A DNA stretch of 53,504 nt from a virus (taxonomy: Duplodnaviria; Caudoviricetes): IMG/VR virus record IMGVR_UViG_3300042460_002234, positions 1-53,504 of that record, one strand, 5' to 3'. The notes beneath the pieces are model-generated. The model saw only the letters and a list, made by a program, of their open reading frames with translations. It searched no databases and was not told the origin of the DNA. Below are positions 4,668 to 36,400 of the stretch, piece by piece. A program made the translations under genes and the position numbers. Each line of letters starts with the position of its first letter. Within the stretch, counting starts at the first letter, position 1.

Positions 4668-5284
4668 CCACCAAGCCCTCCCCCGATTGGGAGCTGGCCG
4701 AGCGCCTGTACCGGGCGGGCCAGCTCTCCAACGTCCAGATCGCCGCTCAGATCGGGATCACCGAGGGAGCCCTGCGCAAGAGGGCCAAGCGCGACGGGTG
4801 GGCCAAAGACCTGACCGAGAAGGTGCAGAAGGCGGTTAAGACGAGGCTGGTACGAGACGAGGTACGAACTGCCGACGCGGGAGCCGCCGCTCGTACCGAG
4901 CGCGAGATCATCGAGCAGGCCGCCGAGAACGCCGTGGCCGTGGTCCGCTCCCACCGCAAAGACCTGACGGCCGGGCAGAACACCCTGGCCCTGCTGTTCG
5001 CCCAGCTCCAAGACGCCGCGGCCAACCGCGATGGTGAGCTGGACGAGATGGCCAAGCAGGTAGCGGCCGAGGAGGGCATGTTCGCCGCCTCAGCCCTGGC
5101 CCGCTTCCGCAAGCTGCTGAGCCTGCCCACCCATGCCGGCGTCATCCGTGACCTGTCCACGGCCATGAAGAACTTCCAGGCCCTCGAGCGCATCGCCTGG
5201 GGCCTGAACGAGAAGGACGACGCCCCGCCGGACTACGAGAAGCAGCTCAAGGAGCTGGCCATGGGCAAGGAGCCGCAGGAGTGA
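4664..5284 (+). CDS. terS: Terminase small subunit
   Basis: N-terminal HTH PDWELAERLYRAGQLS...ITEGALRKRAKRDGW, helical oligomerisation region, upstream of terL. Confidence 0.88.
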   Translation: MTTKPSPDWELAERLYRAGQLSNVQIAAQIGITEGALRKRAKRDGWAKDLTEKVQKAVKTRLVRDEVRTADAGAAARTEREIIEQAAENAVAVVRSHRKDLTAGQNTLALLFAQLQDAAANRDGELDEMAKQVAAEEGMFAASALARFRKLLSLPTHAGVIRDLSTAMKNFQALERIAWGLNEKDDAPPDYEKQLKELAMGKEPQE

Positions 5285-5772
5285 GCCCTGTGGTGGCCAT
5301 GCGCCCCCTGCCGCAGCGCGCCGCGAGAGCTTGGGTCAAGCAGACCCACCGGCACCTCGATGACTACCCGGCTGGCGACCTGTTCCGCGTTGCGCTCGAT
5401 GTGAACGGGCACATGAGCGCCGTTGGGGTTGCAGGGCGCCCCTGCCGCATGCTCCAAGACGGGTACACGGCCGAGATCACCCGCATCGCATGCGCCTCGC
5501 CTGTAGAGGTTAATGCCTGCTCGCGGCTGTATGGCGCCCTACGCCGGGCCGGCATAGCCCTTGGCTACCGCCGTTTCGTGACCTACACGCTGGAGGATGA
5601 GCCGGGCACGAGCCTTCGCGCGGCCGGCTTCCACGACGATGGCCTGACCGATGGCGGCGAGTGGGACCGCAAGAGCCGCCGCCGCAAAGCGGCCAAGCAG
5701 GCAGGGCGTAAGCGCCGCTGGATCTGGCCGGGGCGCGAGAGCGGCCTGTGGGATGGAGTGGCCCATGAGTGA
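5281..5772 (+). CDS. XF1762-family (Mom-related GNAT-fold) protein
   Basis: HRHL...VAGRPCR...AEITR...NACSRLYGA...GYRRFVTYTLEDEPGTSLRAAGF pattern. Confidence 0.85.
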   Translation: MSPVVAMRPLPQRAARAWVKQTHRHLDDYPAGDLFRVALDVNGHMSAVGVAGRPCRMLQDGYTAEITRIACASPVEVNACSRLYGALRRAGIALGYRRFVTYTLEDEPGTSLRAAGFHDDGLTDGGEWDRKSRRRKAAKQAGRKRRWIWPGRESGLWDGVAHE

Positions 5773-30485: not shown

Positions 30486-33400
30486 ATGGAATTCGACGAC
30501 AGCACCGCGCGCCCTGTCTCCATCGACCAGTTCGACGATTCCACTGCCCAGCCTGTAGGCACCTTTTCGCGCTCGATCGGGCGCGGCACCGGCAACCTGA
30601 TCTCCTCGGCCGGCGCCGCGCTGAAGGATGTCACCGACATCGGCGGCATCGCCAGCGGCATCGAGGGTTACGGCGAGCGAATGGCCGCGCGCAACCCCGC
30701 CGAAGTGACCGATGTCGCGGGCGTGCTCGAGAAGCCCCTCACCTTCGCCGGGCAGGCGCTCGGCGAGCAGGTTCCGCAGTTCGGCCTGAACATCGCCGGC
30801 GCCGCCGCCGGCGCGAAGCTGGGCTCCCGCTTTGGCGGCCAGGGCGCCATCGTCGGCGGTATCGCCGGCGGCCTGATGCCGACCTTCGTGCAGGAGTACG
30901 GCAGCATCCGCCAGGAGCAGGCGCACACCGGCATCGACGACAAGGGCCGCGCCGTCGCCGCGGCGCTGCCGGCTACCGCCCTGGAACTGCTGGGCCCCGA
31001 AGCCATCGCCATCCGCAACATCGTCAAGGTGGGCGGCAAGCTCACGGCCGAGCAGGCCGCGAAGCTGGGCGGCGAACTCGCCGCCGACGGCAGCCGCCTC
31101 GCGCACATGGGCAAGGAAGCAGTCAAGTCCGTCGGCCAGGAAGCCGTCACCGAAGTGGCGCAGACCGGCCTCGAGCGCATGGGCGCCGGCCAGGATGTCA
31201 CCGGCGCCGAGGCCACCAACGACTACATCATGTCCGGCCTCGCCGGCGGCATCGCGGGCGGCGTGTTCGGCGGCGGCGCGGCAGCATTCACGCCCCGCGA
31301 GAAGTCGCAGACCGTGGACCCGGTGGCGCAGCAGGCCCAGCAGCAACAGCAGGGGATCGCCCAGGCGACCGCCATCGCCACCACCGACCCGAACGCCGGC
31401 CCGCTCACGAAGGCTGTGGGCCTCAACCCGGGCGCGGCCGCGCAGGCCGGCGCCGCCGGCATCCTGGGCGAGCAGGTCGAGAAGGCCGACGGCCCGGTGA
31501 AGTCCCTGGACGGCGAGTTCAAGGCGTTCCAGAAGCAGCAGGCCGCCGACGAGAAGGCCCAGGCCGATGTCATGGCCGCCTTCGAAGACTTCGACGCGGC
31601 CGTGGCCGCCGGCCAGATGCGCCGCCAGTTCGAGGCGCAGCCGAAGGCCCTGCCGGCCCCGACGCCCGAGTCCAATGTCATCGAGGGCGAGTTCGAGGAT
31701 GTCACCCCGCGCGGCCCGATCATCACCCCGCCGCCGGAGAAGCGCGCCGCGCTGCCGGCGCCGGGCGACACGAAGCCGGGCGGCGAGATCGTTGTCGGCC
31801 AGGACGGCGGCGCCCGCAAGCAGACCTACGACGAGGCCGCCCGTGCGGAGCAGCAGCGCGCCGAGGCCGACTCGATCAGCGGCGATGCCACTGGCATCAA
31901 GGCTCCGGTCAAGGAAGTCCGCCGGCCGGACGGCACGGCCTGGACCAACCACCTCGCCGCCGCCGCGGCGCTGCGCAAGCGCTCGGACGCCGCCGAGTTC
32001 GAGGTCAAGCGCATCGACAAGGGCCAATTCGTTCTCGCGCGCAAGGGCGAGCCGGCCAAACAGGAGAACACCGATGGCGAAGTCCGCGCTCCCGAAATGG
32101 CTGCGGCAAGCGATGGGCGACAGGGTGCTGACGCGCCGGGAGGCGTGGCTGATTCACCGCTGGGAGCAAACGCCGGAGAGCGCGGAGCCGCTGCCGCCGA
32201 ATCTGGAGCCGGCGCTGCAACGGCTGTTCCTGTGGGAAGCGCCCAGCCCGAGCCCGCACCTGCACTGACCGGCTACAAGCGCGACAACCCGGGCGGCAAC
32301 TGGATCACGGCGAAGCAGAAGCACGCTGAGCTGCTGTCGCAGACCAGCACCGACCCCTACTTGCAGAAGATGCTCGGCGGCACCACGACCGCGAGCGCTG
32401 ACCCCGTGGCGCTGCCGCTCGAGGAGCTGGCGAAGCTCCCCTCGGCGACCGACAAGGACCAGGGCAAGATCGACCGCCTCACCGAGAAGGTGAAGGCCGA
32501 GGGCTGGAAGCAGGACGATCCCATCCGCATCGCGGTCAACCAGAAGGGCGAGCCGTACATCGTCGAGGGCAACGCCCGCATCGCCGTGGCCCAGGCCACC
32601 GGCCAGAAGACCGTCAACACCGAAGTGAAGTGGCAGAACGGCGGCGAAGATGCGCAGGGCTTCACGCCGGCGCGCGTCGCCGAGCTGTCGAAGGCCACCC
32701 CCCAAGAGCAGAGCAATGCAGAAGCGACCCGCGAAGAACCACCCCTGGCGCAGCGACAAGAGCAAGCCGCCGCGCAAACCGACACCGTAGAGAGCGAAGC
32801 GGCACCCGAGGAAGGGGCGGCGGCAAACCCGGCAGAACAGGCCAGCAAGACGCCTGCCGTGGATGCCGCCCCGACTTCGGCCGACATCCGCCGCGCCGAC
32901 GGCACGCCGTTCCCCAACAAGCTCGCCGCCGGCGCCGCCCGCGCGAAGGCCGGGCAGAAGGAAACGCACACGATCGAGCCCGTCGATGGCGGATTCGTGC
33001 TGCGTCCGAAGACCACCAAGCCGGAGACCAGCAATGAAGTACAGCAAGACCCCGCCGAAGAAGGCGCCGCCCAGCAAGCAGCCGCCGAGCAAGAAGCCGC
33101 CCCTGAAGGCGCCGCCGCGGCAGATCCCCGTGAAGGCGCCGGCGAAGAAGCCGCCGGTGGACCCGCGCGGGCAGAAGATCGGGATGTTCTGACCCCGGAG
33201 GCTGCAAAGAGCGAAAAGAGCGATCAAAGAGCTTCAGAGAGCGGCGCAGAGAGCGAGCAGGCCCAGCAGCCCGCTCGCCGGGCGCAGCCGGGAGAGCCCG
33301 GGTACACGCTGACCGATGCCCGCAACGACCTGATCGAGCTGCGCTCGCAGGTCGAGGGGCAGGGCCGCGTCGTCGATGACCGCCTGCTGGAGCGCATGCG

Positions 33401-36400
33401 GCAGCAGGAGCGGCTGGTGCAGCAGATGGAGACGGCCGACCAGCAGCCGGCCGCCCAGCAGCCCGAGGCCAACCCCCAGGCCACGCCGGCGCCGGAGCGC
33501 ACCGCCCGTGAATACGAGCGCGAGGCGTACACCTTCGCCGTGTCCCTGGACGAGATCCAGCAGGCCGCCGCGGGCGAGCGCGCCGCGTTCGACGCCAAGG
33601 CCGCGGAGACCCTGCGCGCCGCCGGCTACGAGAAGTTCGCCGCGGACGCCGACTTCCTCTCCTCGCTGTACAAGGAGGCGCGCAAGCGCCAGAAGGAAGC
33701 CGAGCGCGAGAAGGGCCGAGACCCGGCCATCTATCAGGCGCAGCTCGCCCAGGCGATCGCCGCCGCCAACCTGCCGGAAGGCGAGCACGAAGCCTTCAAG
33801 CTGGGCTTCGATCACGCCCTCGCCGGCCGCACGAAGAGCACGATCACCGGCGAGAGCAAGCTCGCCGGCTACGAGGCCGCGCGTGCATGGCTGAAGACCC
33901 CGGAGGGCCGCGCGTTCTTCGAGGGGAAGCGCGTCAACAAGCTCGAGAACACCGGCGCCGACCTGCGCCGCTGGTTCGACAAGGCGAAGAAGGACGCGGA
34001 GGCCGCCAACCTGAAGTCGGAGCTGGCCGCAGAGAAGAAGGCGGCTGCGCCGGCGTCCGAGCAGAAGGCCGACGACGACGAGCCCATGCAGAGCACCGAG
34101 GCGCAGGGGCGCGGCGATCCCGCCGCCTACGCCGTTGCCACTGGCATGCAGCCGCAGGCCGTGCTCAAGGAGCTGACCGACGCCCTGGGCGAGCAGGGCG
34201 TGAAGAACCTCATCCGGGCCGGCGTGCTGCGCATCCTGCCGAGCCGCGAATACTTCCCGGCCGAGATCAAGGCGTTCGTCAACAAGATGTCCGGCCGCAC
34301 CCTGGGCCTGTACGACCCGCGCGGGAAGCGCGCCTACATCGTCGCCAACGAGATCAAGCCCGGCGAAGCGGTGAAGACGCTGATGCACGAAGTCGGCGAG
34401 CACTACGGCCTGTCCACGATGATGGGCAAGGACGGCTACGACCGCCTGCTGAACGACGTGCGCGGCCTCAACCGCATGGGCAACAAGGCGGTGGTGGAAG
34501 CCTGGAACCGGGTGGCGAAGAACTACAAGCATCTGGCCCCAGGCAGCGAGAAGTTCGTGCGCGAGGTCATCGCCCACCTGGGCGAGCGCCCGGACGCGCT
34601 GAAGCAGCCGATCATCAAGCGCATCATCCAGGCGGTGCGCCGCTTCCTCTACCAGCACGGCTTCAAGGTGAAGCTGTCGGACGAGGATGTCGTCGGCATG
34701 GTGGTGGCCAGCCTGCGCCGGACCATGAGCCAGCCGGTGCGCCAAAGCCAGCAGAAGACCGCCGGCGAGCCGGCGCAGAAGCTCGACGAGCCGCTGTTCT
34801 CGCTCGCCGACGAGCGCGCCCCGGGCGTCATGTCCGACATCCGTGACCGCATCGCAGAGCTGAACGACACCCGCCGCACCTTCAACGGCTGGTGGCACAA
34901 GACCGTCGGCACGCAGTACCACAAGGCGCAGATCGACAACGACTTCGGCCGTGTGTTCAACCGCGGCCAGGACTACCTGACCGACGTGTCGCGCATCGCC
35001 CTGGGCGCCGCCGACGCGGCGCCGGAGATCCTGCCGCGCTTCGAGAGCCTGAAGGACTTGGCGAAGTCCGGCGCCAGCCCGCGCGAGCTGAAGCCCGTCG
35101 CCGAGGCCATCTTCCGCGGCACCCTCGAGGACCAGAAGGTCTACACCGACGCCGAGCTGCGCGACCGCTTCAAGCTGAACCCGAAGCAGATCCGCCTCTA
35201 CCGGCAGGCCCGCGCGGCCTTCAACCGCAGCCTCGAGGACATGGCCATCGCCGAGATGGTGAAGCTGGCCCGCAACGACGTGGGCGACAAGGTGGCGCGC
35301 GAGGCCGCGGCCGCCGGCTCCATGAACGCTGCCCGCGACATCCTGACCCGCGAGGCGCCCGAGCTGGCGAAGGAGCTTGACCAGAAGATCGGCCGCGTGC
35401 GGCAGCTCATCTCCGAGGGCTACGCGCCGCTGATGCGCTTCGGCCGCTACTCGGTCTACGTGGTCGGCAAGGACGGCGAACAGCTCTTCTTCGGCATGTT
35501 CGAGGACGAGGCTGACGCGCGGAAGGTCGAGAAGGAGATGCGCGAGCAGTACCCGGACGCCAAGGTGCAGCGCGGCGTGGTCTCTGAGGAGAGCTTCAAG
35601 ATGTTCCAGGGCCTGTCCCCGGACACCCTCGAGCTGTTCGCCGACGTGACCGGGATGAGCCAGAACGAGGCGTTCCAGCAGTACCTCAAGGTCGCGGTCA
35701 ACAACCGCTCGGCCCTGAAGCGCCTCATCAAGCGCAAGGGCATCGAGGGCTACAACCCCGACCTCAAGCGCGTGATGGCGCAGTTCATCACCAGCAACGC
35801 GCGCACGGCCGCCGGCAACCTGCACCTGGGCGAGATGGCGAAGGCATGGGCCGACATCCCCAAGGAGAAGGGCGACGTGAAGGACGAGGCCGCCAAGCTG
35901 ATCGGCTACCTCCAGAATCCGCAGGAGGAGGCCGCGGCCCTGCGCTCCTTCCTCTTCTTCAACTTCCTGGGCGGCTCCATCGCCTCGGCGGCGGTCAACA
36001 TGACCCAGCCGCTCACGATGACGCTGCCCTACCTGTCGCAGTGGGGCGCGCGTCGCGCCGCCGGCGAGATGGGCAAGGCGATGAAGGCCGCCACCGGCAC
36101 GATCCAAGACCCCGCGCTCCGCGCGGCGATGGACCGCGCGATGAAGGAGGGCATCGTCGAGCCGCACCAGATCCACGAGCTGCAAGGCGCCGCCATGACC
36201 CAAGGCCGCGACATGGGCCCGGCCGACCCGGCGCGCGAAGCGCTGCGCAAGGCGGTGTTCGTGTGGGGCCGCCTGTTCTCCTGGGCCGAGCAGTTCAACC
36301 GCCGCGTTACCTTCGCCGCCGCCTACCAAATCGGCCGCAAGCTGTCGCCCGACGAGCTGGAGAAGGCCGGCGCCAAGGACGCCTACGAATTCGCGGTGAA

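Follow-up and report, generated by a model that had tools for sequence, protein, structure and literature searches.

A short open reading frame (ORF) of 64 codons, lying in the +1 frame inside a giant ORF of a tailed virus (Duplodnaviria; Caudoviricetes), is very probably a real protein-coding gene that has been overprinted on a disordered linker of a gene for a giant DarB-like polyvalent virion protein. This reading is based on the comparison of sequences from many carriers. The stretch of DNA concerned, called the window throughout this paper, is the whole of a 53.5-kb IMG/VR provirus record (IMGVR_UViG_3300042460_002234, 53,504 nucleotides, about 67% GC). An initial annotation, made from the letters of the window and a list of its ORFs, had proposed the overlap as the best-supported overprinted gene of this genome, and the features on which it had relied, namely an AGGAG element, an ATG and a 64-amino-acid (aa) ORF with four Trp residues, are all present in the sequence. 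The proposal is supported here by homologues, by conservation of the +1 frame and by selection on the nested frame. The evidence is summarized below, together with the alternative explanations, the properties of the giant gene and the possible roles of the small protein.

A family of small proteins nested in giant phage genes

The translation of the nested ORF (MAKSALPKWLRQAMGDRVLTRREAWLIHRWEQTPESAEPLPPNLEPALQRLFLWEAPSPSPHLH; 64 aa, four Trp, no Cys) was compared by phmmer with 1.84 billion representative proteins. This search returned 21 matches at an expect value (E) of 1e-3 or below, two of them at ≤1e-10 (best 6.2e-15). All 21 proteins are 59-79 aa long and align with the window protein near end to end at 37-61% identity, and none of them is longer. 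The profile search that the initial annotation had suggested, carried out with a profile of these matches on a set of 5.8 billion proteins, retrieved 30 proteins of 41-75 aa, which carry no Pfam domain and for which the sole name is 'hypothetical protein'. A profile search restricted to longer proteins recovered no longer, fused forms of the small protein, which is weak evidence. Homologues conserving the PKWL, LT..EA and RLFL motifs in the +1 frame, on whose existence the initial annotation had staked its claim, were found, and the claim stands. Taken by sequence similarity, these matches show that the small protein is one of a family whose members are about 58-79 aa long.

Among 57 family sequences, the conserved residues near the N-terminus are L6 (51 sequences), P7 (55), W9 (51) and L10, which is Leu or Met in 56; those of the middle are A13 (56), V18 (51), E23 (49), A24 (54) and P41 (56); and those of the C-terminal part are L44 (53), R50 (52), L53 (57) and W54 (47), with His as the final residue in 37. 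No Pfam, PHROG or NCBIfam family was found to cover the small protein in profile searches. The window's own protein matched no Pfam family and no PHROG at E ≤0.01. Searches with 22 family members touched eight different Pfam families, each through a single member (E 0.01-0.09), and none of the 22 matched NCBIfam; eight other members or versions gave single PHROG matches only (E 0.028-0.089).

DNA loci encoding the family were gathered from three sources: viral contigs, one metagenome contig, and a tblastn search of cultured phages with family members. They comprise 14 distinct loci, i.e., the window's own locus (W), L005, L007-L011 and L018-L024, while a fifteenth record, L006, duplicates L005. 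These loci represent roughly eight lineages, and pairs of loci are not independent. Each of the 14 loci has the homologue embedded, at offset +1, in a giant ORF of the same strand. The nested start falls at host codon 456-677 at the ten loci with a defined host start, and 492-870 codons past the opening of the host frame at L021-L024. The carriers range from Vibrio and Thalassomonas podophages of 43% GC to proviruses of 68% GC.

Cultured phages are also among the carriers. The window's own 64 aa had no match in the tblastn search of phages, and other family members found three podophages of 43-51% GC: Thalassomonas phage BA3 and Vibrio phages VvAW1 and vB_ValP_FGH. In BA3 (L018, NC_009990) the nested ORF has been annotated as BA3_0004, a hypothetical protein, inside BA3_0002; in VvAW1 it lies inside gp01, which is annotated as 'DarB-like antirestriction' or 'DNA methylase'. 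In BA3 and VvAW1 the giant gene is preceded by two genes, one annotated as 'DNA ejection' and the other about 290 codons long, and the gene layout of vB_ValP_FGH is as in these two phages, with both neighbours labelled hypothetical only. The BA3 record also contains a second annotated ORF, BA3_0003 (5036-5380), nested in the same giant gene.

The case has to rest on homology and comparison, because the features of the single sequence, the open frame and the codon composition, are insufficient. The +1 frame of the giant gene is open from 31501 (first ATG at 31567, 233 aa) and reads as an Arg/Ser/Pro-rich shadow until 32074, and long alternative-frame ORFs, also shadows, occur throughout the window. 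The length of the open frame is therefore not above chance in this genome of 67-72% GC and provides no evidence. The GC content at third codon positions (GC3) of the host frame is 0.53 over the nested span versus 0.914 in the whole gene, the second lowest value among 2253 sliding windows of 65 codons. At a resolution of 15 codons this dip runs from about 32046-32061 to about 32256-32271 and coincides with the extent of the nested gene. By codon position, the host GC is 0.89/0.71/0.52 in the nested span versus 0.70/0.46/0.93 in the remaining gene. The initial annotation had given about 31 of 65 host codons as ending in A or T; the count of 31 is right and the denominator is 66. The rare codons GGA, GCT and GCA, to which it had also pointed, are enriched in the span (18 of 66 host codons versus 34 of 2251 elsewhere in the gene). 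The GC3 dip by itself was nevertheless dropped as proof of overprinting, since two other linkers of the giant ORF, rich in Ala, Glu, Gln, Gly and Pro (about 32691-32830 and 33010-33240), have a host GC3 of 0.5-0.6 versus 0.91 and contain no nested gene, their +1 and +2 frames being Lys/Pro/Arg-rich shadows with stops.

The abundance of shadows, the equal dips at two linkers that lack a gene, and the fact that the database homologues are unnamed and almost all located on contigs shorter than 3 kb would all suit a chance shadow ORF of a GC-rich genome, with homologues that are gene-caller artefacts on short contigs. Artefacts, however, would not be so similar from end to end, with Trp, Leu and Pro positions conserved, would not turn up again in that frame in phages with 43-51% GC, and would not be predicted to fold confidently in two subfamilies. 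The bias towards short contigs is also expected if gene callers report the small ORF only where the giant gene is cut off. The probability of a mere shadow is thus close to negligible.

Constraint on the two reading frames

The frame under selection was identified by aligning each of the three frames separately. Among ten loci, all 45 pairs gave the nested frame a higher score than either of the other two, with mean local scores of 116 for the nested, 54 for the host and 72 for the third frame. Per-site BLOSUM62 scores on a codon alignment were 2.28, 1.05 and 1.51, respectively; the nested frame served as the basis of the codon alignment, which makes the alignment of separate frames the fairer test. 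Where Leu, Pro, Ala and Glu residues are conserved, their codons differ in the third position of the nested frame (for example CTC/CTG/TTG, CCG/CCC/CCT and GCG/GCA/GCT).

The ratio of nonsynonymous to synonymous substitution rates (dN/dS) was estimated in two ways. With NG86, the nested frame had values of 0.19-0.70 and the host frame values of 1.0-1.7 in the trio of L007, L009 and L010, and among seven loci the nested value was lower than the host value in 20 of 21 pairs. In OLGenie-style counts, sites are separated by their effect in both frames. The six closest pairs then gave 0.29-0.71 for the nested and 0.63-1.36 for the host frame. Over the 91 pairs of the 14 loci, the nested value was below 1 in 69 and the host value in 9, and the nested value was below that of the host in 85. 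Distant pairs drift toward 1, as is expected from saturation and from the constraint that the other frame imposes on 'synonymous' sites. These substitution patterns show purifying selection acting on the nested frame. Near-identical variants of the locus, of which there were none to count, were looked for in contigs of three sequencing runs, of which only the probable source run covers 32008-32343 and the other two have no cover.

The initial annotation had concluded that the nested protein is the one under selection in this span. The comparisons of frames uphold this as far as the nested protein is concerned, and the conclusion is amended in that the host frame is constrained too. The constraint on the host frame was assessed by simulation, in which synonymous codons were drawn anew for the nested frame according to the codon usage of the respective host gene. 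The simulated probability of an open host frame was 0.69 at W, 0.11-0.29 at the other ten high-GC loci, and ≤0.001 at each of the loci of the low-GC phages (L018-L020), and the frame is actually open at all 14 loci. The three low-GC phages have a nested GC3 of 0.80-0.84, where 0.34-0.49 is expected, and a host-frame peptide in the overlap with fewer hydrophobic and more acidic residues than simulated. Measured against these simulated sequences, the data show a host frame that is kept open and poor in hydrophobic residues and, in these three phages, strongly acidic, its sequence being free to change. Since the host frame is open and hydrophilic against expectation, both frames are constrained, and the overlap appears to be truly dual-coding, with a specific sequence required in the nested frame and an open, hydrophilic linker in the host frame.

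Base composition by codon position in the overlap is near-identical across loci regardless of genome GC, and this uniformity is attributed to the double constraint. For this reason codon usage cannot date the frames. It was tried as a guide to the ancestral frame and dropped, as the nested frame looks gene-like in the high-GC loci and the host frame looks gene-like in the low-GC phages.

The same uniform composition, and a host frame demonstrably kept open, could be taken to mean that the conserved thing is the host-frame linker or a nucleotide element (an RNA structure or a DNA site), of which the similarity in the +1 frame is a by-product. This is very unlikely. Of the three frames, the host frame has the most divergent translation, and its dN/dS is near or above 1. 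Variation is concentrated at the nested third positions of conserved residues, where a nucleotide element would not tolerate it, and Rfam gave no match apart from one chance hit (E 0.67). The simulation bears on another possibility, that the giant ORF consists in fact of separate upstream, small and downstream genes, with a host frame that is stop-free across the small gene by luck. Such luck would be easy at W, where chance openness is high, and host flanks that are unrelated between lineages on either side of the small gene would fit as well. No host-frame stop is found at any of the 14 loci, however, with chances that are low at the ten other high-GC loci and minute at the three low-GC ones, and no free-standing copy of the small gene turned up in the viral-contig, metagenome or phage tblastn scans, which makes separate genes extremely unlikely.

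Start site, probable mode of translation and predicted fold

The start codon of the nested ORF is ATG at 13 loci and GTG at one, and it stands 0-8 residues ahead of a conserved LP.W motif. A Shine-Dalgarno (SD) match at -18 to -5 extends over at least 5 nt at 10 of the 14 loci and over 4 nt at two, and is weak at the remaining two; at those ten loci, an equal or better match is found at 0-7% of host-ORF positions. Upstream of the start, the nested frame is closed by a stop after 4 codons in L010, 5 in L024, 7 in L022 and 14 in L021, and no conservation of the nested frame was detected there across the loci compared. A scan of positions 31500-32500 for promoters and terminators gave 0 sites. 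The upstream stops and the lack of upstream conservation make independent initiation far likelier than frameshifting, and we infer that the small protein is made by independent initiation on the mRNA of the giant gene. Initiation would take place on this late transcript at the protein's own AGGAG-N7-ATG, and the shared mRNA and the nesting would tie the expression and inheritance of the small protein to those of the giant gene.

SD-like internal elements are also able to stimulate ribosomal frameshifting, as in prfB and dnaX. A programmed +1 frameshift would yield a shortened giant protein, made up of its N-terminal part and ending in the 60-aa segment as an alternative C-terminus, and the +1 frame is indeed open for 191 codons upstream of the ATG in W and for 89 in L005. 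This mechanism is improbable, as the nested-frame stops interrupt it at four loci and no upstream segment is conserved. In addition, no common slippery motif was seen in the 25 nt upstream of the starts when these were aligned by eye, a start codon is conserved at 14 of 14 loci, and the SD spacing is typical for initiation.

The initial annotation had described the small protein as one that looks folded, and structure prediction of the protein alone agrees with this description. AlphaFold2 with the family alignment gave three helices (residues 8-15, 21-32 and 42-55) with a predicted local distance difference test score (pLDDT) of 84.9 and a predicted template modelling score of 0.66. A second subfamily was modelled with matching topology (pLDDT 88.4). 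The family is therefore predicted to fold as a compact three-helix protein. Foldseek against the PDB (best E 5.7), VIA-align against 48,161 PDB representatives (best Z 4.2, the level of generic helical similarity) and a PDB sequence-profile search (best E 0.1) revealed no relative, and the best score in the ESM Atlas, 0.75, is a lead only. The sole structural match was the BFVD entry A8HNW3 (110 aa, 37% identity, template modelling score 0.69), which, judged from its matching length, is probably BA3_0004. A homodimer prediction for the 64-aa protein scored 0.01 versus a mark of 0.42 and carries no weight either way.

Several points weigh against the interpretation of the ORF as a functional gene. 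The selection signal is modest, the nested dN/dS being just moderately below 1 in distant pairs and reaching 1.03 for W and L005 (NG86) and 1.01 for L008 and L010 (OLGenie-style), and the 14 loci, with their roughly eight lineages, are of limited independence. In L010, a record rated complete with terminal repeats, a TAG at 5016-5018 replaces a conserved Trp codon and is immediately followed by an ATG. Judged from this codon, the nested gene of L010 is truncated to 56 aa or broken, which suggests that the small gene may be dispensable in some settings; the pair of L009 and L010 retains a nested dN/dS of 0.19 despite the stop. As an SD element, L008 and L022 have a G-run only. Structural and family matches (PDB, Pfam, PHROGs, NCBIfam and ESM Atlas) give no pointer to an activity. 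No RNA sequencing run containing the locus is listed, and the accessible parts of the literature on the carrier phages report no ribosome profiling or proteomics for the giant gene or the inner ORF.

The giant host gene and possible roles of the small protein

In its C-terminal 860 residues, the giant ORF of the window matches phrog_11358 (E 1.4e-208; aa 1458-2314) and phrog_10089, 'DarB-like antirestriction' (E 5.4e-36). Its upstream neighbours have PHROG matches for head-closure, tail-assembly and virion structural proteins. Pfam detected no domain at E ≤1 in this ORF except a chance HEAT match. The complete host ORFs at four loci are 3339-3896 aa long. In the hosts of L005, L007, L008 and L010, Pfam identified ART-PolyVal, LPD1/3/5/37/38, InPase, SLT, helicase, methyltransferase and RadC domains, and by this domain content these hosts are polyvalent proteins as Iyer et al. 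(2017) use the term. The coordinates of the nested gene and its surroundings are given in Table 1.

Table 1. Position of the nested gene and associated features in the window
Feature	Coordinates	Strand	Description
Shine-Dalgarno-like AGGAG	32062..32066	+	Followed by a 7-nt spacer and the nested ATG; read from the sequence
Nested gene (putative)	32074..32268	+	64 codons and TGA (32266-32268) in the +1 frame of the giant ORF; suggested by homologues, selection and model
Dual-coding stretch in the host frame	32073..32270	+	Host codons 530-595; Gly/Ala/Pro/Glu/Asp-rich low-complexity linker, DGEVRAPEMAAASDGRQGADAPGG...PEPAPALT
Host gene, giant ORF of 2317 aa	30486..37439	+	In the virion structural module; C-terminal region resembles DarB-type polyvalent proteins

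The host proteins are mosaic. BLASTP comparisons of different lineages show no similarity in the surroundings of the nested gene, and the hosts of W and L005 have no match whatever; the nested proteins align across all lineages although the host flanks are unrelated. The upstream neighbour genes are conserved within lineages only. A DNA search in phages found no close relatives of the window's host gene, and 0 viral contigs with its aa 472-805 were confirmed. A protein search with its aa 470-800 found only P0003 (36% identity), which carries LPD38, and the genome contigs searched for it gave one weak match, L001. Relatives of the C-terminal part are L003 and L004, with 46% identity, and the C-terminal domain of W was not found in five other carrier records searched.

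Other features of the giant proteins were recorded as well. That of the window contains two copies of a small domain, about 45 aa in length (..RRPDGT..N.LAA..A....G.FVL..K), at aa 476-525 and 799-846 (about 31911-32060 and 32880-33023), with a local score of 72 between them. Each copy precedes a low-GC3 linker, and the nested gene comes after the first copy. The protein also has HEVGEH at aa 1301 (34386-34403), a motif that looks zincin-like, and PLMRFGRY at aa 1648 (35427-35450); Pfam assigns no domain to either. The N-termini (first ~50 codons) of the giant proteins of L017 (the host of L010), L018 and L020 look alike by eye (..F..KNP.Y.D.PD..L..ALH.K.YS.IP...F..QIGF), and BLASTP found no match between these hosts.

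Giant polyvalent proteins are believed to accompany the DNA into the cell, where they would counter host defences. The small protein may be an accessory of the giant ejected polyvalent protein, either as a helper in its assembly or packaging or as a partner delivered with it, a role that can be put forward tentatively. The invariable nesting in the N-terminal third, the presumed late co-expression and the guaranteed co-inheritance all point to a role tied to the giant protein, and nesting would keep the small gene with the giant gene through heavy domain shuffling. On the other hand, conservation of the small protein exceeds that of every host segment flanking it and of the upstream neighbours, which is a poor fit to a chaperone that co-evolves with its client; part of this extra conservation may stem from the double constraint. 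It is also possible, if doubtful, that the small protein acts as an independent late small effector or regulator, for which the linker is merely free coding space. A more specific proposal, which we regard as speculative, is that the three-helix protein is an ancient and obligatory partner of DarB-like ejected proteins, required for their loading into the capsid or for their action in the newly infected cell, and that nesting prevents its separation from them by domain shuffling. In a bolder variant of this proposal, the small gene would be the older one, the giant ORF would have arisen across it by read-through fusion of an ejection-protein gene and an effector gene, and the linker in the host frame would be the de novo frame.

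The overlap may be compared with known systems. With its different frame, its own start and predicted ribosome-binding site, the selection on it and the preservation of the outer frame, the nested gene appears to fit the architecture of embedded same-strand overprints. The nearest example is Rz1 within Rz of the lambda spanins, a small gene wholly inside a larger one on the same strand, in the +1 frame and with its own start, an arrangement that is conserved in many phages (PMC5295617 and PMC6139136). Rz1, in contrast, is an outer-membrane lipoprotein encoded in the lysis cassette and a binding partner of the Rz protein, whereas the small protein here has no signal peptide, hydrophobic N-terminal segment or lipobox Cys, its host is a giant, probably polyvalent virion protein, and an interaction between the two products is not known. 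The overprints of phiX174 (B in A, E in D) are likewise internal same-strand overlaps with two functional frames, one product of which is disordered or compositionally constrained (PMC8227390, in part). They belong to tiny genomes under size pressure, whereas the nested gene described here is carried by tailed phages of 35-60 kb, inside a gene of 2300-3900 codons and with no evident need for compression. According to the accessible text of the same source, most internal overlaps are +1, and de novo proteins in the +1 frame are commonly hydrophobic with few acidic residues, tendencies that the nested gene fits. RpnS is a small protein translated within the larger gene RpnL and acts on the system of that gene; it is an in-frame C-terminal domain of the large protein (PMC10327210, in part), unlike the nested protein, which is out of frame (+1) and unrelated in sequence to its host.

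Traces of the gene exist in the records. BA3_0004 (YP_001552273.1) is a family member annotated as a 110-aa ORF in BA3_0002, and its last 64 residues align with the window protein; it was annotated from an upstream ATG, is nameless, and is not treated as a conserved gene in the literature searched. The host genes fall into the polyvalent class by the ART-PolyVal, LPD, InPase and RadC domains of four of them and, more tentatively, by the DarB-like PHROG match of the window's own, and the accessible text of the paper on this class (PMC5512222) contains, by term search, no mention of a gene inside these genes. In the parts available, the genome paper of VvAW1 (PMC3558961) does not use the word 'overlap' and lists gene 1 as a DNA methylase only, and a paper naming vB_ValP_FGH has, by term search, nothing on overlapping genes or the giant gene. 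Literature searches, which yielded mostly listings and the starts of abstracts, surfaced no description of the small-protein family. Embedded same-strand phage genes are thus known as a kind, and the family, the class of its host genes and the breadth of its distribution are, as far as we know, undescribed.

The gene has been missed. Annotation pipelines drop ORFs that are nested in longer genes, and members of the family have reached protein databases only from contigs not long enough to reveal the giant gene, plus once as the unnamed ORF of BA3. The overlap would be a comparatively well-supported case of dual coding in tailed phages, in which the gene for a predicted folded protein overlies a disordered linker, selection can be measured on both frames, and the carriers span 43-68% GC. 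A conserved small predicted protein tied to polyvalent genes would be a new player in the biology of these phages, and cultured phages that carry it exist. The linkers of giant phage genes may also be a good place to seek more hidden genes.

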